Below are positions 17,068 through 31,459 of a stretch of DNA of 36,214 nucleotides, one piece after another. Both the position numbers and the translations under genes were made by a program. How positions within the stretch are numbered: the first letter of the stretch is position 1; each line of letters opens with the position of its first letter. The notes below the pieces were generated by a model. The model had not been told where the DNA came from. It was given only the letters and a program-made list of their open reading frames with translations, and did no database searches. The stretch is from a virus. Lineage: Duplodnaviria > Heunggongvirae > Uroviricota > Caudoviricetes. The stretch lies in the IMG/VR virus record IMGVR_UViG_2541047804_000005; one strand, written 5' to 3'.

Positions 17068-17338
17068 GATGTTACCGTAGTATGTGAGTATCCATCGAAT
17101 AGATACCAAGCAAAAAAGCTCCCGAAGGAGCCTTCATTTTCACTTTTTTAAATCCAACGACAGACGGCTGGCATTTAAGTATTGTGAAATATTATCAAAT
17201 GTAATCATCATTGATTTACAAAAGATACATTTTGCCCCGAAAGGATTCATGTCAGAAACATCAAAAGATGATGTTCTATACTGGGAACCATGACAACACG
17301 GGCATCTAAAGTGAATATGGTTTGTAATATTGTCTACC

Positions 17339-17551
17339 TCAAAGCGCCACTACATGAACAGCGGCAGGACCTTTAGGTCCGTTCTCAATACCAAATTCAA
17401 CTTCCTGATTCTCAGTTAATGTTTTGAAATCGTTGCTCTGAATTGCTGAGAAATGGACAAACACATCTTTGCTGCCATCTTTCGGCGTGATGAAACCAAA
17501 ACCTTTTTCAGGGTTAAACCATTTCACTAAACCAGTCATTTTGTTAGACAT
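17339..17551 (-). CDS. cspI: Cold shock protein, CspA family (CspI-like)
   Basis: 70-aa ORF with the cold-shock domain signature KWFN.EKGFGFI and VFVHFSAI (RNP1/RNP2 motifs); a long AT-rich upstream leader region follows on the minus strand. Confidence 0.8.
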
Positions 17552-17914
17552 AATTATTACCTTTTGAAGAAATTAGCCCTTGGGCAGAATGGTCCGAAAA
17601 AAAATATCAGAGAGAAAAACCAACAAGGAAATCTCAAGAGGTACAAATAATAAAATTATAACAATGACTGCTTCAGATAAATTTGTAACAAACCAGAACA
17701 CCATTAACGCATGATTAACCACCCATAGCAAGGATTACTTTTGTAAAGAAAAACACAGCAATGAAAGAATAGCTTTATTTATTAATAATAACGTGTCATT
17801 CTGATTAAGACCTTTTATCTTACCCTTAAGATTTCAGGAATTTTGGCTCATGGAAGAGTCCTTTTTATTTAAATTTTACATTCCGCGATGTAAATGTTCC
17901 GATTTAATATTACC

Positions 17915-18938
<1,024 letters not shown>

Positions 18939-18942
<4 letters not shown>

Positions 18943-19226
18943 ATATATTTATGATGAGGACGCTCGTGCTTATTGGCAGGATTTTCAATCTTAAAGGAGT
19001 ACTGATGCTGCAGATAAGACTCAACTTTTTCTGACAATTTTTCTGCTACTTCCAGGAAGACTTGCCGGACGCTCCTTCTGGCTGCTGCCTCATAAAACTC
19101 CAGCGCAGCTCCTTCAACACGGTCCATGGCGACATCCAGGTCAAAAATTTCACCGTCAAAGCGTTCTTTGTCCTGTAAGGCTACAGTTACCGTAACTTTA
19201 TTCTCAAAATTACGGACTCCTTTCAC
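18939..19226 (-). CDS. YdfR-like protein (DUF1327) between holin and endolysin
   Basis: 95-aa soluble ORF in the position ydfR occupies between essQ and rrrQ in Qin; family assignment from gene order. Confidence 0.45.
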
Positions 19227-19254
19227 AACCAGTTCATAGTCTTGAGTCGTTGGA

Positions 19255-19470
19255 TTACTCTCCTCTCGCAGCCTTACGCCTGTCTTCTTTAATCTTGAAA
19301 TAAAGATTTGTCAGATACGTCAGCAGGCCAAAAACCAGGCTACCCAGCACACCGATTGCAGCCCACTGTGACGGAGTTACTTTATCGAGTAACTGCAATG
19401 CCCAGAAACCAGCATTACCCGCCGATGTGCCATAGGCAACACCTGTTGTTAACTTATCCATTGATTTCAT
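19255..19470 (-). CDS. Pinholin, phage 21 S-type
   Basis: 71 aa from [23 protein letters not shown]...[10 protein letters not shown]; near-identical to the S21 pinholin as remembered; dual-start MKSM motif; GAGG ribosome binding site upstream. Confidence 0.8.
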
Positions 19471-19689
19471 ATCCTCACCCCGATGTACACGGATGGTGCA
19501 ATATGTTTGAAAAGATCGGAGTCTACGGGGTAGTTTTGACAGCACACGTTGTTCTCAACGGCGCTAAAAAAACATACACATTAAAAATGTGGGTAATTAT
19601 TTTGAAAGAAAGTCATATATAAAATAATAATACGAGAAATGTTTTCATATTTAGTGTACTGTATACGGCCATTTATACAGGAAAAGCCT

Positions 19690-19860
19690 ATGTCAGAACG
19701 TAAAAACTCAAAATCACGCCGTAATTATCTCGTTAAATGTTCCTGCCCAAACTGCACCCAAGAGTCAGAACACAGTTTTTCAAGAGTACAAAAAGGTGCC
19801 CTTTTGATCTGCCCTCATTGCAACAAAGTATTCCAGACAAATCTTAAAGCTGTAGCCTGA
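19690..19860 (+). CDS. YdfK/YnaE-like cold-shock-induced zinc-ribbon protein
   Basis: ORF from ATG 19690 (AGGAAAA upstream) with CxxC...CxxC (CSCPNC, CPHC) motif. Confidence 0.5.
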   Translation: MSERKNSKSRRNYLVKCSCPNCTQESEHSFSRVQKGALLICPHCNKVFQTNLKAVA

Positions 19861-19910
19861 TTGATTTTATTAGTAACAAGTATTTTTTATATTTTAATAA
19901 TATATTTAAA

Positions 19911-19939
19911 GCAGATAATAAAAAACCCGCCTGAGCGGG
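19911..19939 (-). terminator. Rho-independent terminator (minus-strand reading)
   Basis: CCCGC-CTGA-GCGGG hairpin at 19926-19939, followed on the minus strand by TTTTTTATT. Confidence 0.45.
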
Positions 19940-20223
19940 TTTGAGATTGTGGTGCTTTTTGTGGGAGTCATCCACTTACGCACTTTGTTTTGCCATGCCA
20001 GCAGTTAGCTTCTGCTGTAAAACTATTCATGCAGCAAACCTGCACTTCACCACAATGGTTAGCATACTTTTCCTGATTAAGATTTTGCCAAATATGCTAG
20101 CCATTGTTTCATGTATTGGACCTCCTTACTTTTTATTAAAGAGATCCAATATTCACTACTCTGTCCGTATCTCTACTCAGGCATCAGCCTTCTTCGTTAT
20201 CGTATACAGACGAGCGATGAATT

Positions 20224-20439
20224 TTAATCAGTAATGATGACATTTGCTGCTGCAGGACCTTTAGCACCACTCTCTATAGAGAAGGTAACCTTTTGACCTT
20301 CAAATAAGGTTCGATAATTATCATTCTGAATCGCAGAAAAATGCACAAACACATCTTTACTACCATCAACAGGAGAAATAAAGCCGAAACCTTTATCAGC
20401 GTTAAACCATTTTACTAAACCAGTCATTTTATTTGACAT
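20224..20439 (-). CDS. cspB: Cold shock protein, CspA family (CspB-like)
   Basis: 71-aa [26 protein letters not shown]...VFVHFSAI with both RNP motifs; divergent from the cspF-like gene as in Qin. Confidence 0.75.
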
Positions 20440-20739
20440 TCTACATTCCTTAACTTGAGCCTTTCGGCATAAATGGTTTGCATAACAGAAACGACTTCGT
20501 ACTTAATTGGAGAGACTCAAAGAAGGAATAAGTGAATAACACCTGAAATGAGAACTGCTTTAGTAAACTACTTCGTATATCGTCTGTTCTTCAAACCGAC
20601 GCAATCATTAACGCATAGTTGAACATATGAAGCAATGTTTATTTTAGACATCCAGCCATCTTCAACCCCATCAAAAAACTATAGCTTTCTTCAGGAACGT
20701 GTGTATAGTGCGCCAAGTTATCAGTATTAAGGAATTTTT

Positions 20740-20952
20740 TTGTCCCGTAAAATGACAGGAATTGTCAAAACCTTTGACGGCAAAAGCGGCAAGGGTCTTA
20801 TCACCCCATCCGATGGTCGTATCGATGTCCAGCTTCATGTTTCAGCGCTCAATCTCCGCGATGCAGAAGAAATTACCACCGGATTACGCGTGGAATTTTG
20901 CCGGATAAATGGTCTGCGTGGCCCTTCAGCTGCCAATGTTTACCTTTCATGA
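20740..20952 (+). CDS. cspF: Cold shock protein homolog, divergent CspF/CspH-like
   Basis: 70-aa [30 protein letters not shown]... with degenerate RNP motifs typical of CspF/CspH. Confidence 0.65.
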
Positions 20953-21233
20953 GCTATATTAAAGCTTTAATTTCAGGCCCCATCGGATCACACATGGAGA
21001 GTTTTTATGAATAACCCCGTCTGTCTTGATGACTGGTTGATTGGCTTTAAAAGCTTATGCTGTACTTTGGCCGTAATAGCTCTGCTAATAATATAATAAG
21101 CAGACTCATTGTGTTTAGGGACATTGTACTGGAAGAAAATATTTTAAACATCAGGCAAATAACCAAGTCACCAGCTAAATAATAAGTTAACAGACATGAG
21201 TCCCGGGATGAGATTCAACATTACCATTGCCCC

Positions 21234-21265
21234 ATTTAAAGCACAAAACCCGCTCATCAGCGGGT
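21234..21265 (-). terminator. Candidate tR' terminator downstream of Q
   Basis: CCCGC-TGATGA-GCGGG hairpin (plus 21248-21265) followed on the minus strand by TTTTGTGCTTT, about 45 nt downstream of the predicted pR' start. Confidence 0.4.
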
Positions 21266-21313
21266 TTTCTACTTTTTCTTAACGTCGGGTATACAAAGCC
21301 CATCGTTGAAAAA

Positions 21314-21342
21314 ATTTTATCCATATTTTTTGAAAAATGCAA
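21314..21342 (-). promoter_or_regulatory. Candidate late promoter pR'
   Basis: On the minus strand TTGCAT-N17-TAAAAT located 30-60 nt downstream of the Q stop. Confidence 0.4.
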
Positions 21343-21373
21343 ACATCATGTCGCCATCTTCAGCAAAAATCAT

Positions 21374-22126
21374 TTATCTCGTCACCTTCCTCAATTGCGC
21401 TTCCGCGTATGCTTCTTCCTGCCAGCACTTTGTTACCAGTTTATCAATGACGTCCGCATACCCCTTATACCACTGATAATCGGTCAGGTCTGGTACCAGC
21501 TTCTGGACATGACGTCGTGCCAGCGTGGTCGGTAAACGACTAAATCGGTTTCCATTACAACGCCCACAAATCTTATATACCGGTACGCCATGAAACCGGG
21601 TTCTTTTTTCATCCAGAACAATCCCTTTACCCTTACACCCTCTGCACGCTGTGCTGACTTCGCCCTTACCATGGCAATGCTGACATAGTTCCTTCACCCA
21701 TTCTTCCTTGATTACAGATTCCCCGCGTCTGTAGTGTTTCACCACTTCGCGCAATACATTATAAAATCCCGTACCTGAACAATGCTCACAGCGAGCCTTA
21801 CTTGCCGCAGACCTGGAGTAATCAGCAAAGGCAAAATTCACAAGGTAAGGAATAATCTGTAACCGGATTTCTTCACTCAATTTGTTCAATGTCGGGTTAT
21901 CCAGTGCCATCGCGTAATTTAGCAGGCCTTCAATCGCAAACTGAGGGTCCTGAACACCAACTTTTGCCAGAAATAAGGCCAACCCAAGTGGTGCTTTCGA
22001 CTGCACCATCCCCTGCGCTGCCATTACATCCGTAATTGTTAAACAACCGGTGCCTGTCGCTGGAGCGTCATCGCTCAATTTTGGAGATTTTGGGGAGTAA
22101 TATTTTGGTAAGGCTTCAAGGTTCAT
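21374..22126 (-). CDS. Late antiterminator Q (phage 82 / QuuQ type)
   Basis: 250-aa ORF with several CxxC pairs (CEHCSGTG, CQHCHGKG, CRGCKGKG, CGRCNG) characteristic of 82-type Q proteins; located upstream of the lysis region. Confidence 0.8.
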   Translation of the reverse strand: MNLEALPKYYSPKSPKLSDDAPATGTGCLTITDVMAAQGMVQSKAPLGLALFLAKVGVQDPQFAIEGLLNYAMALDNPTLNKLSEEIRLQIIPYLVNFAFADYSRSAASKARCEHCSGTGFYNVLREVVKHYRRGESVIKEEWVKELCQHCHGKGEVSTACRGCKGKGIVLDEKRTRFHGVPVYKICGRCNGNRFSRLPTTLARRHVQKLVPDLTDYQWYKGYADVIDKLVTKCWQEEAYAEAQLRKVTR

Positions 22127-22630
22127 GCTCGTTCTCCACTTACGCCAGTACGCCAGTTGCCAGCGCGCGATCGATAAAACGAAATATCAGCTCCAGTTGG
22201 GAGCCATACTTCTCTTCAAATGCCACTGTATCCGTATGCAGCTCGTTGTGATGCTTTCTGCACAAAGGCAACACAAAGAGATCATGTGCTTTTGTTCCCA
22301 TTCCGCCCTGCCCGTGACCAATCAGATGATGCGGATCGTCGGCTGGCATACCGCAGCAAGCACACGGCTGTGTCTTAACCCAACGAGTGTATTTCTCCTT
22401 AACCCAGCGGCGACGTTTAGGCAGCTTCATGAAAGATTCCGGAGACTCTGGATCAACGGTGATGCTTACCACCGTCTTTTCCTGTGGTGGTTTTTGTTGC
22501 TGGTGGGCGTAAGGCAACGGTGCAAGATTTTCTGTGCGTTGTTTCAATATGCTGGTGGCGGTCTGCTCTCCCTGTACGATGTCGCTTTCGCGGTACACCG
22601 AGCAGATTTTTTCCGCTGGTAATCCCAGCG

Positions 22631-22639
22631 AACGACGCG
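22631..22639. repeat. IS1 target site duplication, left copy (AACGACGCG)
   Basis: Identical 9-mer directly abuts both IS1 termini. Confidence 0.85.
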
Positions 22640-22654
22640 GGTAATGACTCCAAC

Positions 22655-23158
22655 TTATTGATAGTGTTTTATGTTCAGATAATGCCCGATGACTTTGTCA
22701 TGCAGCTCCACCGATTTTGAGAACGACAGCGACTTCCGTCCCAGCCGTGCCAGGTGCTGCCTCAGATTCAGGTTATGCCGCTCAATTCGCTGCGTATATC
22801 GCTTGCTGATTACGTGCAGCTTTCCCTTCAGGCGGGATTCATACAGCGGCCAGCCATCCGTCATCCATATCACCACGTCAAAGGGTGACAGCAGGCTCAT
22901 AAGACGCCCCAGCGTCGCCATAGTGCGTTCACCGAATACGTGCGCAACAACCGTCTTCCGGAGCCTGTCATACGCGTAAAACAGCCAGCGCTGGCGCGAT
23001 TTAGCCCCGACGTATCCCCACTGTTCGTCCATTTCCGCGCAGACGATGACGTCACTGCCCGGCTGTATGCGCGAGGTTACCGACTGCGGCCTGAGTTTTT
23101 TAAATGGCGGAAAATCGTGTTGAGGCCAACGCCCATAATGCGGGCGGTTGCCCGGCAT
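22655..23158 (-). CDS. insB: IS1 transposase InsB frame (expressed as InsAB' by -1 frameshift)
   Basis: 167-aa ORF inside IS1 with the IS1 InsB sequence as remembered. Confidence 0.85.
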
Positions 23159-23352
23159 CCAACGCCATTCATGGCCATATCAATGATTTTCTGGTGCGTA
23201 CCGGGTTGAGAAGCGGTGTAAGTGAACTGCAGTTGCCATGTTTTACGGCAGTGAGAGCAGAGATAGCGCTGATGTCCGGCGGTGCTTTTGCCGTTACGCA
23301 CCACCCCGTCAGTAGCTGAACAGGAGGGACAGCTGATAGAAACAGAAGCCAC
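23077..23352 (-). CDS. insA: IS1 InsA (transposition repressor)
   Basis: 91-aa [46 protein letters not shown]..., the canonical InsA length and zinc-finger sequence. Confidence 0.9.
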
Positions 23353-23407
23353 TGGAGCACCTCAAAAACACCATCATACACTAAATCAGTAAGTTGGCAG
23401 CATCACC

Positions 23408-23416
23408 AACGACGCG
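23408..23416. repeat. IS1 target site duplication, right copy (AACGACGCG)
   Basis: Same 9-mer as at 22631-22639. Confidence 0.85.
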
Positions 23417-23967
23417 ATACAGCCTCAGGTAGTGCATCCACCACCTGATTGCAGACCGCCCACCAGGATAATTCAGCCAAAGATAATTCCCGCTCCTGCG
23501 TACCGCTTATTGCGTGACGGATGACGTCAATCACCCATGCTGTCAGATTTTGTTGAGCAAGCAGCTCCAGTGATTCCGATGTCTGGTCACGCAGTTGGTT
23601 GTCGCAGTGCCAGCACAACACCATTGCGCCGGTACCATAACGGTGAATGACTGTTTCAGTGTGATGGTAATCGCCATTAGGCCACTGGCAGGATGTAACA
23701 TGACGTAATAGCCAGTCAGACAATGCGCCAACGCCGCCAGTAGCACGAATCACCCGTTCGTTACTAAAAAACGGCAGCAATGTTTTGTCTTCTGCCAGCG
23801 GCTGGCGAACGGCAGGAACGACTCCGGATGGCAGATTTCGCATGCTTTTTGGTTCCGGTTCCACCAGCACTCGAGGATTATGAAATATCTGTATGGATTC
23901 ACGGCCCGGCTTAAGGACCACCAGCCCAAGCTCAGGCACCAGAACAGGTCTAAGTAATACCCGCACG

Positions 23968-24246
23968 TTACCTCCAGATCCGTTGCTGGAAAGTGCGGGA
24001 CGCACGTGGTGGGCGTTCGGAATAAGGCAGCCTGACAGAGATTATCCAGTGCCGATAGTCGAGACTGAGAGCTTTCTTAACCTCGAACCCGCGCCTGCGG
24101 TAAGAATGAATCAGCCATTCGGCCTGTTCTGCAGTGCATGGAGGGTGCTGGAACCATTCAGACTTGAATGCGTGAGAATACCGCCCGTGCGTGCAGGCAA
24201 GAACGGGCGAATTATCAGAATTGTAATATTTTACGTTGCGTGCCAT
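23968..24246 (-). CDS. Hypothetical prophage protein (92 aa)
   Basis: ORF upstream of the DUF968 gene, overlapping its start; no family recognised. Confidence 0.35.
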   Translation of the reverse strand: MARNVKYYNSDNSPVLACTHGRYSHAFKSEWFQHPPCTAEQAEWLIHSYRRRGFEVKKALSLDYRHWIISVRLPYSERPPRASRTFQQRIWR

Positions 24247-24312
24247 CGGTTTTCTCCGGTGGCACGGTGTTACTCAGCGGGAGTTCAGCCCCGCGCAAGA
24301 TTGTAGATGAGT

Positions 24313-24564
24313 TTATTCTTCTGCAAAAGCAGAAAAGCCAGCTTTTATTCCGATCTCTTTCAATGCCTGTAATGAAGTGACAAACTCACCTTCGCGCAAG
24401 ATAAATCCGTCCGTGACCCGAGCATCCACAAAATTAATTAACGCAGCCCCATTCTTTCGCAAACACATAATGCGGTAATGACTAACAAGATTTCCATTTT
24501 CAACGCACACAGCATAGAGGCCATCTTCACAAAAAATTTTACGCAGTTCTTCGATGTTCATCAT
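24313..24564 (-). CDS. Hypothetical prophage protein (83 aa), possibly Rem-like by position
   Basis: ORF between hok and the DUF968 gene, where Qin carries rem (83 aa); sequence not independently recognised. Confidence 0.35.
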   Translation of the reverse strand: MMNIEELRKIFCEDGLYAVCVENGNLVSHYRIMCLRKNGAALINFVDARVTDGFILREGEFVTSLQALKEIGIKAGFSAFAEE

Positions 24565-24680
24565 CAGAATCCTTCCGGATAATTAGCTCTCCCCTTTAAG
24601 GGACCATCCCTCTTATCCCTGCGCGCTACTTAAGTATTTTTGATTCTATTCCGGCACCGTCCAGATCTTCAAACGCGTTG

Positions 24681-24710
24681 AAAATAAAAACAAAAACCCG
24701 CCGAAGCGGG
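24681..24710 (-). terminator. Rho-independent terminator of hok mRNA
   Basis: CCCGC-TTCG-GCGGG hairpin (plus 24697-24710) followed on the minus strand by TTTTTGTTTTTATTTT, about 70 nt after the hok stop. Confidence 0.6.
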
Positions 24711-24780
24711 TTAAGTGCGGGTGCGTTGAGGATGCCTGCCACATCAGAGGTGGCGAGGGATTTCTCCCTCGCCGGGTCTC

Positions 24781-24936
24781 TTACTCCTCAGGTTCGTAAG
24801 CTGTGAAGACAGCGACCTCCGTCTGGCCGGTTCGGATTCGTACCTCGCAGAGGTCTTTCCTCGTTACCAGTGCCGTCACTATGACGGTTAAACAGATGAC
24901 GATCAGGGCGATTAACATCGCCTTTTGCTGCTTCAT
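24781..24936 (-). CDS. hokD: Hok-family type I toxin (HokD/RelF-like)
   Basis: 51-aa ORF MKQQKAMLIALIVICLTVIVTALVTRKDLCEVRIRTGQTEVAVFTAYEPEE: single transmembrane helix plus the conserved Hok C-terminal Cys region. Confidence 0.85.
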   Translation of the reverse strand: MKQQKAMLIALIVICLTVIVTALVTRKDLCEVRIRTGQTEVAVFTAYEPEE

Positions 24937-24993
24937 AGCCTGCTTCTCCTTGCCTTTCGGCTCGTAAGAGGCTAACCTACATGTGTCTAGCAT
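24781..24993 (-). CDS. Mok-like reading frame (in-frame N-terminal extension of hok)
   Basis: ATG at 24991-24993 opens a 70-aa frame (MLDTCRLASYEPKGKEKQA-MKQQK...) that runs into hok, resembling MokC-type arrangement. Confidence 0.5.
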   Translation of the reverse strand: MLDTCRLASYEPKGKEKQAMKQQKAMLIALIVICLTVIVTALVTRKDLCEVRIRTGQTEVAVFTAYEPEE

Positions 24994-25050
24994 GAAATTG
25001 GCCTCAGATTAATGTTAAGCGTCTTGCAGGACGCGTAATGTTAACTGGGG
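24985..25050 (+). ncRNA. Predicted Sok-like antisense RNA
   Basis: Plus-strand TTGCCT-N17-TAACCT (24950-24978) would start an antisense transcript across the mok start codon and ribosome binding site; a short hairpin GCGTC-TTGCAG-GACGC lies at 25010-25025. No clear U-tract terminator; ends are approximate. Confidence 0.3.
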
Positions 25051-25111
25051 CTTTTCTCTATCTGCCTTTGGTGTTCATGCCCGAGGCAGATAGCCTCAAG
25101 CACCCGCAGCC

Positions 25112-25140
25112 ATTCTACTTAACTACCGTTACCTCGCCAA
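25112..25140 (-). promoter_or_regulatory. Candidate hok/mok promoter
   Basis: On the minus strand TTGGCG-N17-TAGAAT, followed by a 5' leader with a 9-bp stem hairpin (CTATCTGCC...GGCAGATAG, plus 25056-25091) about 110 nt upstream of mok. Confidence 0.4.
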
Positions 25141-25610
25141 TATGAAATCAGTCAGAAAGGCGATCCATAAGAACAATAGCAAGACAATAAATCGCCATTA
25201 CAGCCGTAATAGCCAGCGCACATTTGAGAACCAGCACCACAACCTCCTGTATTGGACGTAGACCAGTCCTGATGAATATGAGGCTGTCTCGTCAGTGATT
25301 CAATACAACTATTGGGTATAGTTTCTCTGATTTTTTCTGTGGAAATGGGGCACAACCACTAGTCACCACCAGCACTTCTTTTAATACGCAAAGTCCGACA
25401 CAAGCTAACCTTCTAGTCCGCTTTGAGCGAAAAACAGCCATAATTTAGTGCCACGTATATAATGATAGAGCTATTCAAGCTAGCAATTCACATGTAAAAA
25501 TTCAGAGGGTAGAAGCACATAGTTATAAATGTTGGCTCCATCGACAAATTGCGGTCTCAAGTACATTTATTAATGTTGCCCCCGCATTAACAAATCATCA
25601 AGGTGACGAC

Positions 25611-27398
25611 ATGGACGATATTAATATCAGCCTCGACGAACTTAACACTATTGATTTATCCCCCTTAATCCAGAGTAAGCTGCCAGTTACCTGCTTTGAT
25701 ATCACAAAGTATCTTTCTAGCCTAGGTGATGGAAGAGCGGAGATAAGACTGCTAACCCATATTTGCGGTTTTCACTTTCGTCCCGAAAATCCACAGGTAC
25801 CATTTGGTCCGTGCTTTCAAAGCAGCCAAGGTAGATCTGCAATTCCGGATGACATTAACGGGTTGTCGCTGGAGGTACTTTCTCAATTTTGCCCGACGAT
25901 AGAGCTACCCGAACTTCAAGCTCGTATTGCTGATACACTTTGGGTTCGTAAAATTGGTGGAATCCGTTTTCCTTTGCTGGCAGTCCGTGCTTATTATGCG
26001 TCCAGTATAGCTATTATGACATCGCAAGGGACGTGGGTTAGTGCTTTAGAACGCCTAGAGCGTGCGCTTAGGCTGTGTTGTTTTTTTCGAAAGAATACTG
26101 ATTTCAGGGATGAATTTGATCAGCTTTCGGCACATCTACTAGCAGAGTATGAACGTACCAGAGAACAAGGCGATTCACCTTATCCGCTGCGACTCCTGCA
26201 ACTCGATATCGACTGTAAAGTGAGTGAGCCATCTTTTATTGCCCAGGAACTCCTGTTTCTGACAAAAAACTATCTGGCTCAAAAATTATTTTCATTTGCC
26301 GTCGATGCCTGTAAAACCGCAATCACGATTGCGAATAGGTGCTGTGACAGAGATACACAGTTTGAATTCTGGCGGCTTCTTGCCGATACACATCTGGAAG
26401 AGTCAAAATTCCAAGATGGCGGTATGATTTCGGCAGCCTGCATGCAGAATGCTATTGAAGCACTGGCTAATATTCCAGGAACCCGAATAGAACGTCTTGC
26501 GCTGTATGAAGAAATGCGTGATTACCAAATCGAATCCCGTCACCAGATGTCTATCCTTCAGTCTCCCCCTCAAGATATTAGTGAGATTGTCCATCAAGCC
26601 AAGAGTCGGGTAGTCGGAAGAGATATGTTTGATATGGTTTTCAGACTTGCGATGCTGGTCTGTCGGCCAACCAGCATTGAGAGACTTAAGGCTCAAGCAA
26701 TAGAACAAAAGGCCAACAGCATAGCTTGGATGTTTGGATCAACACATATTGATCATGAGGGAATGACACTTGCTCGCATACCCGCAGGATTGGGGATTGA
26801 TGATGCAAATGGGGCAGTTATTTGGCCCATAATGATGACGAGAATGCGTATCGACCATGAGTTGGCAGTAGCTGGGCAAATTATTCCTGCTACAGATGAG
26901 ATCACAATGAAATATCCAATCTCGGAGGCGTTTTTTCGCGATATGTTCATCAATCATCCCTTCATCCCGTTTGGGCATGAAGAGTTTTTCATCAAGGGTA
27001 TGGTTTGCGGTTTCAATGGAGATTTTATGACGGCATGCCACGTGTTGATTCCCCAGATCGAAAATAGTCTGAGATATGTGGCTAAAATTAAAGGTGAGGA
27101 ACCATCGCAGCTTCACGGGGACGGTTCGCAAGAGCGAAATGGACTCAAGGGATTACTAGATAATCCACTGATTATTGAAGCTTTCGGCGTAGACATAATT
27201 GGCAATCTTCAGGCCTTACTGGTAGATAAAATCTATGGTGATTTACGAAATCAACTAGCTCACGGATATGTGCCTGCCGGTTACTACAATCAACCTCCCT
27301 GCATTTTTGCATGGTGGCTTGTATTGCACATTCTAATGAACCCTACGGCGAGATACTGGCAAGCCACTTATGGCCAAGAGAGTGAGGCTCAGACTTAA
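25611..27398 (+). CDS. Orphan 595-aa protein with C-terminal HEPN-like Rx4HxY motif; candidate abortive-infection or defence RNase
   Basis: Long uninterrupted ORF with AGGTGA ribosome binding site, opposite in orientation to both neighbours, lower GC than the flanking phage genes. C-terminal LRNQLAHGY (R546...H551.Y553) fits the HEPN Rx4-6H / HepT Rx4HxY catalytic signature. No N-terminal domain recognised. Confidence 0.6.
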   Translation: MDDINISLDELNTIDLSPLIQSKLPVTCFDITKYLSSLGDGRAEIRLLTHICGFHFRPENPQVPFGPCFQSSQGRSAIPDDINGLSLEVLSQFCPTIELPELQARIADTLWVRKIGGIRFPLLAVRAYYASSIAIMTSQGTWVSALERLERALRLCCFFRKNTDFRDEFDQLSAHLLAEYERTREQGDSPYPLRLLQLDIDCKVSEPSFIAQELLFLTKNYLAQKLFSFAVDACKTAITIANRCCDRDTQFEFWRLLADTHLEESKFQDGGMISAACMQNAIEALANIPGTRIERLALYEEMRDYQIESRHQMSILQSPPQDISEIVHQAKSRVVGRDMFDMVFRLAMLVCRPTSIERLKAQAIEQKANSIAWMFGSTHIDHEGMTLARIPAGLGIDDANGAVIWPIMMTRMRIDHELAVAGQIIPATDEITMKYPISEAFFRDMFINHPFIPFGHEEFFIKGMVCGFNGDFMTACHVLIPQIENSLRYVAKIKGEEPSQLHGDGSQERNGLKGLLDNPLIIEAFGVDIIGNLQALLVDKIYGDLRNQLAHGYVPAGYYNQPPCIFAWWLVLHILMNPTARYWQATYGQESEAQT

Positions 27399-27616
27399 AG
27401 TGAATAAGTTTACGAAGTTGGCACTTCCGGATGCATGTCCATATGAGTTGAGGCGATTTGGTTAATAAGGTTGAGTGCTGCTGAAATTATTCGATGTCCG
27501 CTTTTGGCACAAAGCGGACAACCACGCCAGATCTACCCTGTGCCATGAAAAATGAGAATGTCAATTCACTCCTGAACTAATGCTTTTTAATCTAGTAACG
27601 TCTAAAATACCTAACA

Positions 27617-28018
27617 TTATCCCTGATAAAATGCCAGTATGCGCTGCATAACTTCACTCATCCGGCACTCGCGACAGATTATGTTTAGGCGACTGTCGTA
27701 GCGACGTATTTCTCCATCAGGTAACGACCAGATAAGGTCCGGATCAACCACAGCTGTTTTCTTCACCTTTGCCCTCGAGAGTTTTTTGCGGGCGTTTTGC
27801 CAGTCCTTACGCGCCTGTTCAGACGGGAATAACCCGTAGCCGGAGTTGTATACATCGCCACTGGCTACCAGCTCTCTGGCAAGAACGCTCATCAGATATC
27901 TAGTCGCACCTGTTTTAGCTTCCAGTTGCCGTAACGTCTCACGACCGCTCTGGCGCACGAGTTCCACCACCTGCCCTTTAATTTTTTCCCGCTCTTCTTG
28001 TGTAAAAACTTTTGCCAC
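27617..28018 (-). CDS. Hypothetical protein downstream of the replication initiator (133 aa)
   Basis: ORF in the position occupied by the helicase loader (P) in lambda but far smaller and without recognisable ATPase motifs; C-terminal CRECR. Confidence 0.4.
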   Translation of the reverse strand: MAKVFTQEEREKIKGQVVELVRQSGRETLRQLEAKTGATRYLMSVLARELVASGDVYNSGYGLFPSEQARKDWQNARKKLSRAKVKKTAVVDPDLIWSLPDGEIRRYDSRLNIICRECRMSEVMQRILAFYQG

Positions 28019-28058
28019 AAGTCCCCCTTAAAATTACCTCATGACCTGAAATCAAAAC

Positions 28059-29024
28059 TTATCCTCTGAAACCAGGCGGAATTTCTGTATCCGGTTCAGA
28101 AATATGATTAACACAACGCTGTACAGGTGAACGCCCCAGGCGGATGACCAGTTCGTCCCATTTTTCGCGGAGCTTTGACGGGCTCATGATGTTTTTTACC
28201 CAGAATGGATCCCGCTGTACCCGACCAAACATTTCACAAATTTGTCTGTGGCTTCTGCCATCCAGCATCCGCATTGTGCGCACATCATTGGCCCAGACAG
28301 TCCAGTTAGGCTCTTTTGGTCGCATGATCTCGCCATCATCACTGGCGGCCTGTTCGTAGAGACCCACGATCCGCCCCCATATCCACTGCGCACACGCCAG
28401 ATCCTCCTGGCTACCCCACTGGCGTTTTTTCGCACTAAACACAACTGCGCCAGGGTGCCGGATTAAAAAATCCTGTTCAGCCGTCTGCGGGTCCGGTTGC
28501 GAAGCTTCCGGACGAAAAGTGTTTTTATTCTCTGTAGTAATCTCTGTTGTATTCTCTGTAGGATCATCGGGCCATTTTGACCCGATGACATTGGGTCGTT
28601 TTGAACCAATGGAGCGTTTCATTTTGACCTCTTCCATCGTGTCATTTTGACCTGATGGAGCGGCGCATTTTGAACCGATGGATTCGCTCAATTTGCCATC
28701 ATCTAAAAGCTCGCTTCCATAGTTAATCGTGTAGAAATTGGTCATATCGCGCTTTGATTTATTGAGCTTTTCACAACGCAAAAGCCCCAGCGTTTTCAGA
28801 CTTGCAAACGCGCGCTTTAACGTTGACTCTGACCAGAATGGGAACTGTTCCAGCCATTGTTCCGTTGTGTTGTAAATCCAGCGAACACCATCACATTCCA
28901 TGCCGGAATTGGTATCTCTCAACCAGTAATGCAACTGCTGCAACACAATGGCTTCATTTAAGCCAATCTTCATCGCAAGCTGTGTGTTTATAACCAGTGG
29001 GCGTTCAGCAAAAAGAAGGCTCAT
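28059..29024 (-). CDS. Replication initiator protein (lambda O-like) with embedded origin iterons
   Basis: ATG at 29022-29024 (MSLLFAERPL...); N-terminal winged-helix-like region, central repetitive segment (SIGSK, RSIGSKRPNVIGSK) encoded by DNA iterons, distinct C-terminal domain. The track start at 29078 is a TTG. Confidence 0.7.
   Translation of the reverse strand: MSLLFAERPLVINTQLAMKIGLNEAIVLQQLHYWLRDTNSGMECDGVRWIYNTTEQWLEQFPFWSESTLKRAFASLKTLGLLRCEKLNKSKRDMTNFYTINYGSELLDDGKLSESIGSKCAAPSGQNDTMEEVKMKRSIGSKRPNVIGSKWPDDPTENTTEITTENKNTFRPEASQPDPQTAEQDFLIRHPGAVVFSAKKRQWGSQEDLACAQWIWGRIVGLYEQAASDDGEIMRPKEPNWTVWANDVRTMRMLDGRSHRQICEMFGRVQRDPFWVKNIMSPSKLREKWDELVIRLGRSPVQRCVNHISEPDTEIPPGFRG
28527..28704. 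repeat. Origin of replication iteron array (ori) inside the initiator gene
   Basis: Five to six direct repeats of consensus CATTTTGAMCYGATGG at 28573, 28597, 28620, 28643, 28666 (degenerate copy at 28689), spaced 23-24 bp, adjoined by ATTCTCTGTAG repeats at 28527 and 28551 and an AT-richer stretch. Confidence 0.65.
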
Positions 29025-29526
29025 AATTCCATCCAGCTTTTTGTTGGTATTGCTGTCGATACGCAAGTTTGAAAGCAATTGCTTTTTCTATAAGTTCGTC
29101 AGTTTCACGATCCACTACGGCAGGATCAGCAAAAAGCAGTCCGGACTCCACCACATCGCCATATTCTTTGTTTAACCCGGCGATCATGTACGTGATGCTT
29201 TTTCCGTCACTAATTTCACGATACAACCTGAAATCATTAATCCGGATAGCCTCCATAATTGCAGGCACTAGCGCCGTGAACTTTTCACGCTTATCCCTGG
29301 TGTCGATAGCCTTCCAGCGTTCGAATATCTTCACTCGATTAACGCCAAGCGCTCGCTGATCAACCGCGCCACCTTCATCTGTGACACGCTGAACATCGAT
29401 GTTCGGGCGCTCTTTCAAAGCCCAGAATGCTTCAGTGATTAATATCGTCGCCTGCTCCTGTGTCATTCCTGGTCGACATATCCAGGCATCCAGAGCCTCA
29501 CGAGCCTGTTCAGGAGTGATTTTCAT
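29005..29526 (-). CDS. Hypothetical early protein between the Cro-like gene and the replication initiator (173 aa)
   Basis: ORF in the position of cII/YdaT-type genes; no motif recognised with confidence. Confidence 0.4.
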   Translation of the reverse strand: MKITPEQAREALDAWICRPGMTQEQATILITEAFWALKERPNIDVQRVTDEGGAVDQRALGVNRVKIFERWKAIDTRDKREKFTALVPAIMEAIRINDFRLYREISDGKSITYMIAGLNKEYGDVVESGLLFADPAVVDRETDELIEKAIAFKLAYRQQYQQKAGWNYEPSFC

Positions 29527-31406: not shown

Positions 31407-31459
31407 TTTCTGGTGACGTTTGGCGGTATCAGTTTTACTCCGTGACTGCTCTGCCGCCG
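31407..31459 (+). ncRNA. dicF: DicF small RNA
   Basis: TTTCTGGTGACGTTTGGCGGTATCAGTTTTACTCCGTGACTGCTCTGCCGCC followed by GTTTTT matches DicF as remembered, including the GGCGG...CCGCC terminator stem; located just upstream of dicB. Confidence 0.75.

Follow-up and report, generated by a model that had tools for sequence, protein, structure and literature searches.

What does a single large gene do when it stands alone, against the direction of its neighbours, in the middle of a prophage? The question is raised by a 36,214-nucleotide (nt) stretch of Caudoviricetes DNA (IMG/VR virus record IMGVR_UViG_2541047804_000005; hereafter the window, to which all coordinates refer), which carries between its hok locus and its replication module a gene for a protein of 595 amino acids (aa), whose residues are numbered below on that protein. 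An earlier sequence-only reading had described this gene as an orphan with a HEPN-type motif at its C terminus and had put it forward as an uncharacterised single-gene effector of abortive infection or anti-phage defence. The gene belongs instead to a large known family, already listed in Pfam and PADLOC as the candidate PDC-S39. Its motifs and its structure model indicate that the product is almost certainly a HEPN-type ribonuclease (RNase), and we favour, with moderate confidence, the view that it is an anti-phage effector that works without a partner, its gene being a moron that fills a variable cargo slot in a Qin-like lambdoid prophage.

The gene is a member of a large, catalogued family

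The predicted reading frame was confirmed on the plus strand, opening with an ATG at 25611 and ending at 27398. The gene and the parts of its product are as follows.

25611-27398, plus strand: coding sequence, 595 aa, ATG start; identical to RefSeq WP_000340970.1, 'DUF4209 domain-containing protein', a PDC-S39 member
25600-25605, plus strand: Shine-Dalgarno sequence AAGGTG, 5 nt 5' of the ATG, read from the sequence
25620-26108, plus strand: DUF7380 domain, aa 4-166 (Pfam PF24098, E = 2e-34), with a putative sensor or regulatory role
26049-26528, plus strand: TPR-like alpha-helical repeat region, about aa 147-306
26979-27392, plus strand: C-terminal HEPN domain, about aa 457-594, with the DUF4209 core at aa 484-573 (27060-27329)
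27060-27074, plus strand: E484-N-S-L-R488, the HEPN Ex3[KR] motif in the second helix (from the alignment; motif definition PMC3710099)
27246-27263, plus strand: R546-N-Q-L-A-H551, the Rx4H catalytic motif, with a polar N after the R and followed by G552 (from the alignment; motif definition PMC3710099)

Two domains can be named, both above the curated Pfam cut-offs, where the earlier reading had found none: DUF7380 scores 119 bits against a gathering cut-off of 27, and DUF4209 (PF13910), whose cut-off is 22.3, scores 34.0 bits with the whole protein and 37 bits when only its C-terminal fragment is searched. Each is matched by 35 of the 35 family members, down to 24% identity, that make up the alignment used for all conservation statements. 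At E <= 1, Pfam returned besides these two only a sub-threshold match to MreB_Mbl (E = 0.19, 11 bits against a 27-bit cut-off); a search of NCBIfam with the protein matched zero families, and its only PHROGs matches, phrog_5183 and phrog_31613, are both of unknown function. PADLOC holds two PDC-S39 profiles that cover nearly the whole protein, PDLC05012 (E = 8.4e-103, aa 43-581 aligned to profile positions 54-602 of 615) and PDLC05011 (E = 2.6e-102); no other PADLOC family matched at E <= 1. With this match and the RefSeq annotation as DUF4209, the gene can be called neither an orphan nor uncatalogued. The inferences of the sequence-only reading were in fact all public already: the HEPN assignment dates from 2013, and PADLOC already calls PDC-S39 in E. 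coli O157:H7 and P. aeruginosa PAO1. The comparison with ApeA, AbiD/AbiU and RnlA/LsoA that had been suggested as a check gave no Pfam or PADLOC profile match at E <= 1, nor did AbiF, which places the protein outside all of these families.

Full-length relatives number in the thousands. When 1.84 billion cluster representatives (50% identity) were searched with the profile, 7,180 clusters matched at E <= 1e-3, of which 2,728 also passed E <= 1e-30; each of the best 150 is full-length (550-670 aa). Among the organisms that encode proteins of the same architecture, about 600 aa long, are Citrobacter, Enterobacter, Vibrio, Aeromonas, Pseudomonas, Oleispira and many cyanobacteria, and the family as a whole is spread over gamma-proteobacteria, cyanobacteria and P2-like and lambdoid phages. 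Within E. coli, identical DNA over at least 80% of a 2.2-kb query was found in 148 of 5,426 complete genomes.

The C-terminal domain carries a conserved HEPN signature

HEPN domains are recognised by an Rx4-6H motif between helices 3 and 4 in which a polar residue (N, D or H) follows the arginine, and by an Ex3[KR] motif that places an acidic residue in an upstream helix (PMC3710099). DUF4209 itself was placed in this superfamily in 2013 as the C6orf70/ERMARD family, whose Rx4-6H is conserved and predicted to be catalytically active, and which is described as "fused to TPR" and found "in R-M related operons" (Anantharaman et al. 2013, PMC3710099). Three lines of evidence bear on whether the present protein retains these hallmarks. 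Firstly, the peptide LRNQLAHGY noticed in the sequence-only reading occupies aa 545-553, with R546 encoded by CGA at 27246-27248, as had been given, and H551 by CAC at 27261-27263. R546 is present in 35 of the 35 aligned sequences and H551 in 34, N547 is kept in at least 90% of them and G552 is invariant; the proposed Rx4HxY motif thus stands as far as its R and H are concerned, while the 'xY' part is unconserved and has G552 in its place. It is this conservation, and not the occurrence of the motif, that makes R546..H551 meaningful: a bare Rx4-6H is found 4 times in the protein against 2.7 expected, which is within chance, and of these occurrences only R546..H551 is conserved. Secondly, the other conserved block, L479-IPQIENSLR-488, contains the Ex3R element, with Q482, E484, S486 and R488 invariant. 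Thirdly, the structure model of the C-terminal domain, which is confident, shows the up-down fold of a four-helix bundle, in which Ex3R lies inside the helix 472-493 and Rx4H between the helices 527-538 and 562-594, a beta-hairpin and small helices being inserted between the two elements. This arrangement matches the published HEPN layout (PMC3710099).

The structural matches of the C-terminal model include, lower in the list, Las1, RnlA/LsoA and AbiV. A Foldseek search of the PDB with the same model gave no significant match (best E = 1.9), so that structural support for HEPN comes from one method only; we take this null result to reflect low sensitivity on a divergent helical domain and do not read it as evidence against HEPN. 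Sequence-profile searches against PDB chains detected no solved relative. Taken on motifs, conservation and fold, the assignment of the C-terminal domain to HEPN is highly probable, though short of certain.

At the N terminus, DUF7380 has its own set of conserved polar residues, R105, D108, Y128 (invariant), S131 and R151, which suggest a binding or catalytic pocket distinct from the HEPN site. The description of the region upstream of the motif as Cys-rich did not survive comparison: the protein has 15 Cys (2.5%), and the family shows zero conserved Cys columns. Metal binding through cysteines was considered and dropped, as no Cys is conserved in the family.

The gene occupies an exchangeable cargo slot

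The gene is flanked on both sides by minus-strand genes and separated from them by AT-rich spacers of more than 200 bp, as the sequence-only reading had noted; the spacers measure 505 nt upstream (41.8% GC) and 218 nt downstream (40.8% GC). The gene itself has a GC content of 44.7%, against 48-50% in the flanking prophage genes, and is oriented antisense to the phage early-right operon. The elements of the slot are the following.

24781-25105, minus strand: left anchor, hokD with the sok antisense RNA (hokD by annotation; Rfam sok at 24931-25105, 116 bits)
25431-27500, plus strand: cargo module of about 2.07 kb, made up of the gene, 180 nt upstream (37% GC) and about 100 nt downstream, delimited by homology breakpoints
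27495-27518, no strand assigned: perfect 9-bp hairpin GTCCGCTTT-TGGCAC-AAAGCGGAC, lying on the right breakpoint 27501-27505 of two independent loci
27617-28018, minus strand: right anchor, the DUF977 gene at the end of the replication module (by annotation and locus comparison)

The limits of the cargo-specific module, about 25431-27500, follow from the positions at which homology to other loci breaks. On the left, comparison with loci that hold other cargo places the breakpoint at 25176-25184 or at 25430, one nested in the other; on the right, two of four loci break at 27501-27505, one at 27610 and one at 27642. Such nested breakpoints point to repeated recombination. The hairpin may be a recombination or processing site; it is no canonical terminator, because a T-run is absent on both strands. 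A terminator scan found no canonical terminator at threshold for the cargo module, and the region downstream of the gene folds no better than shuffled sequence (z = -1.2).

That the slot is a swappable accessory position, as had been supposed, was borne out by other E. coli strains, in which the hokD and DUF977 flanks are conserved and the cargo differs. The alternatives are a P-loop ATPase, an alpha/beta hydrolase (O157:H7 included), QueH, S-adenosylmethionine-dependent methyltransferases, a KilA-N protein, and DUF7167 together with hypothetical proteins. Strain GSH8M-2 carries at this position (locus L018, 1060-2085) a 341-aa protein that matches PD-T7-1 (2e-68) and PD-T7-5 (2e-35); as its alignment covers no more than profile positions 142-447 of 452, it may be a shortened variant. 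PD-T7-1 is an experimentally validated defence system (PMC9519451). The interval thus has the features of a prophage defence hotspot, with conserved flanks and an alternating cargo that includes a homologue of a known defence gene.

Between sok and the cargo module, the 246-nt segment 25185-25430 is common to GSH8M-2 and missing from three other loci. It contains two small minus-strand open reading frames (ORFs; 67 and 49 aa) that are without RefSeq annotation.

Neighbourhoods of relatives and competing explanations

The closest relatives in the Enterobacteriaceae are all phage-borne. The Citrobacter copy (81% identical) lies at a prophage end, and the Enterobacter copy (39% identical) in a lambdoid prophage, where it is flanked by the genes for the Q antiterminator and the holin, a position used by morons of the late operon. 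More distant relatives of the full architecture (C-terminal part 1e-23, N-terminal part 2e-6) are found in P2-like phages between gpA and gpQ, an interval known as the old/tin hotspot and as a reservoir of anti-phage systems (PMC9122126). These positions, those in P2-like phages adjoining that of the old/tin exclusion genes, would also suit an RNase that serves the phage itself in prophage competition or in its life cycle, for example by superinfection exclusion restricted to close relatives or by shutting off or remodelling host RNA at induction. We consider this explanation unlikely, though it is the best of the alternatives. The gene is antisense to the early-right operon and has its own AT-rich upstream region, which fits expression in the lysogen and not in the lytic cycle; many relatives are chromosomal, outside prophages and beside restriction-modification (R-M) or CBASS systems; and excluding competitor phages practically equals defence. 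Among the chromosomal copies, that of Aliivibrio has a type I R-M system on one side and on the other an AAA_13 ATPase, and that of Oleispira lies among insertion sequence (IS) elements, group II introns and a CBASS system.

The Aliivibrio fischeri locus (L022, 1-12169) deserves mention in its own right: its R-M locus embeds a His_Phos_1 protein, a 448-aa unknown protein and a Polbeta-like protein, and its AAA_13 ATPase measures 771 aa. It is a dense defence island, in which further candidates may be found.

The neighbourhoods also bear on whether the gene works alone. About 12 of them, from gamma-proteobacteria, cyanobacteria and phages, contain no conserved adjacent gene, the cyanobacterial PIN gene excepted, in agreement with the single-gene character that had been proposed. 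The module 25431-27500 has no co-oriented ORF besides the gene, and hence no adjacent cognate antitoxin of the HEPN-MNT or RnlAB type. As a possible partner we considered the 160-aa ORFs downstream of the Vibrio and Aeromonas copies, and rejected them as mutually unrelated. These data make it quite improbable that we are dealing with a selfish module for addiction or stabilisation, that is, a latent toxin RNase that penalises loss of the prophage in the manner of hok/sok or of relBE in K-12 and has no role in defence: none of the sampled clades has an antitoxin-like conserved partner, the small downstream ORFs of Vibrio and Aeromonas being unrelated; the sole conserved neighbour, in cyanobacteria, is itself a PIN nuclease; and a lone stable protein offers no obvious logic for post-segregational killing. 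The PIN gene overlaps the family member and is a constant neighbour only in the cyanobacterial clade (L008 8926-9348; L025 9938-10372; L026 4311-4745), where the DUF7380-DUF4209 and PIN pair may form a two-nuclease variant of the system. A cellular role in RNA processing or regulation outside conflict, with the prophage site incidental (compare the role predicted for ERMARD and the non-catalytic HEPN of MtlR), is the least probable explanation, and a very unlikely one, given the patchy presence of the gene (the 148 E. coli genomes above), its island-like insertions and repeated occurrence on mobile elements, a GC content below that of its flanks, and strictly conserved catalytic R, H and E residues that speak against a purely binding function.

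Several observations weigh against the anti-phage effector that we favour. Copies in V. cholerae, Aeromonas and Pseudomonas and a metH-adjacent metagenomic copy lie amid housekeeping genes without defence neighbours (the first three and one metagenomic copy are small insertions), and in one E. coli genome, FDAARGOS_1290 (NZ_CP070048.1 1198328-1201966), the gene is broken by IS4. The PDC systems are by their description '145 untested phage defence candidates', which other authors left out as unvalidated, and literature searches on DUF4209, DUF7380, PDC-S39 and ERMARD with HEPN found no functional study of any member. Finally, a consensus promoter scan returned zero plus-strand promoters at threshold upstream of the gene. 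Two candidates were discerned by eye in the region 25435-25529; both fall below the scan threshold, and they are weak evidence because the consensus scan missed them.

25458-25463, plus strand: -10 element of candidate promoter 1, CAGCCA-17-TATAAT
25501-25529, plus strand: candidate promoter 2, TTCAGA-17-TATAAA

Known counterparts and a proposed mechanism

PDC systems were nominated by 'guilt-by-embedding' in BREX, DISARM or type I R-M loci (Payne et al., bioRxiv 10.1101/2024.01.29.577857); the supplementary tables of that study gave no text match to PDC-S39 or DUF4209. PDC-S39 is a single-gene candidate that matches the 595-aa protein over nearly its full length, with no structural difference between the two. 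The setting is another matter: in place of the BREX, DISARM or type I R-M locus that generally led to the nomination of a PDC system, the gene here has a lambdoid prophage slot. With C6orf70/ERMARD the protein has in common DUF4209 and the conserved Rx4H, and it agrees with what was published on the bacterial forms (TPR fusion, R-M related operons). Eukaryotic ERMARD, however, is described as a protein of the endoplasmic reticulum membrane with a transmembrane region, while the 595-aa protein has a DUF7380 and TPR-like N terminus. Searches by sequence detected no solved structure for the eukaryotic or the bacterial group.

HepS of the Salmonella prophage Gifsy-1 is a solo HEPN abortive-infection protein with a canonical Rx4-6H motif and no partner (Nature 2026, PMC13043305). 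It is constitutive and autoinhibited, is activated by a phage tail-tip protein and cleaves tRNA anticodon loops (PMC13043305). The 595-aa protein resembles it in being a single HEPN protein without a partner and in the site of its gene, an accessory slot that adjoins the replication genes in a lambdoid prophage, and HepS is the best mechanistic template for it. A single protein that combines HEPN with a sensor is also found in the validated defences HEC-08 (DUF3644 HEPN and Zn fingers), DS-11 (CBS and HEPN), DS-38/PD-T7-4 (HEPN and a Zn finger) and Tha; for HEC-08 and DS-11, defence is lost upon mutation of the HEPN catalytic residues. They follow a common plan, which the present protein would share: the effector is a HEPN RNase, and the domain joined to it senses or regulates without being catalytic. 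They differ in belonging to other HEPN families and in having other partner domains, and the protein has no PADLOC match to them at E <= 1. RnlA and LsoA, in contrast, need an antitoxin partner, which the 595-aa gene is without.

From these counterparts we infer how the effector could act. The gene runs antisense to the early-right operon and would have a promoter of its own; its expression is for this reason expected in the lysogen, where the protein would be kept inactive. The enzyme would then be activated by a trigger from the phage, most probably a protein to which the TPR/DUF7380 part binds; two HEPN domains would assemble a composite metal-independent RNase site that could cut tRNA or mRNA, and the cleavage of RNA would stop translation and abort the infection. 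Whether the DUF7380-TPR-HEPN(DUF4209) proteins go further and form a mechanistically new class of one-protein phage sensors, in which the DUF7380/TPR half directly recognises a phage protein and frees the HEPN RNase, is a more tentative proposal, which we regard as possible.

If defence were confirmed, the gene would become the first validated member of PDC-S39, a family of about 7,000 clusters (50% identity), and would open a first way into the function of the DUF4209 HEPN domain, which human ERMARD also has. Should the sensor proposal also hold, the copy in this E. coli prophage would offer a first tractable model for the family, from which eukaryotic ERMARD also arose, and solving its trigger and RNA target would provide the first experimentally grounded function for the ERMARD HEPN domain. 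The gene makes a convenient test case, with an E. coli host, a compact module of about 2.07 kb with defined boundaries, no partner and the obvious mutants E484A, R546A and H551A. The hokD-DUF977 interval of Qin-like prophages is moreover a cargo hotspot that can be mined for further systems. Current concepts would be unchanged: HepS and Tha have already established that a single HEPN protein, encoded in an accessory slot of a prophage, can bring about abortive infection.

Comparison with the Qin prophage of K-12

The statement in the sequence-only reading that relBE lies beside hokD in K-12 Qin is correct, the order there being rem-hokD-relE-relB-ydfV-flxA-ydfW-ydfX-dicC. The window is collinear with K-12 over 18885-24950, an IS1 at 22640-23407 excepted, and again from 29247 onward. 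Calling the locus a swapped cargo position with respect to K-12 is right inasmuch as the slot is variable, and goes too far if a clean exchange of one gene is meant: the two prophages differ over 24951-29246, and this divergent stretch takes in replication genes, so that it is not a one-gene swap. We therefore rejected a clean swap of relBE for the HEPN gene, the difference from K-12 amounting to 4.3 kb.

The hok locus differs as well. The window has a complete hok/sok with a strong Rfam sok match, whereas in K-12 (L002, 5120-5873) homology stops 14 nt upstream of the hokD start. As relBE abuts hokD in K-12 and the window has the complete hok/sok, control of hokD differs between the two prophages.

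Forms of the gene that lack a part were also encountered. The IS4 insertion in FDAARGOS_1290 has led to separate annotation of the DUF7380 and DUF4209 fragments, and truncated forms with the N-terminal part only (P0012, P0013) are frequent in read-assembly data, where they may be contig-end artefacts.

Elsewhere in the window, the IS1 copy at 22640-23407 (insA/insB-type ORFs at 22655-23352) breaks a ydfU-like gene that is intact in K-12 Qin. The small RNA DicF at 31408-31459 and two cspA-type thermoregulator leaders at 17312-17697 and 20208-20600 are as expected for a Qin-like prophage. ORFs for terminase, portal, capsid, tail and integrase are retained, and the prophage thus looks far more complete than Qin of K-12.

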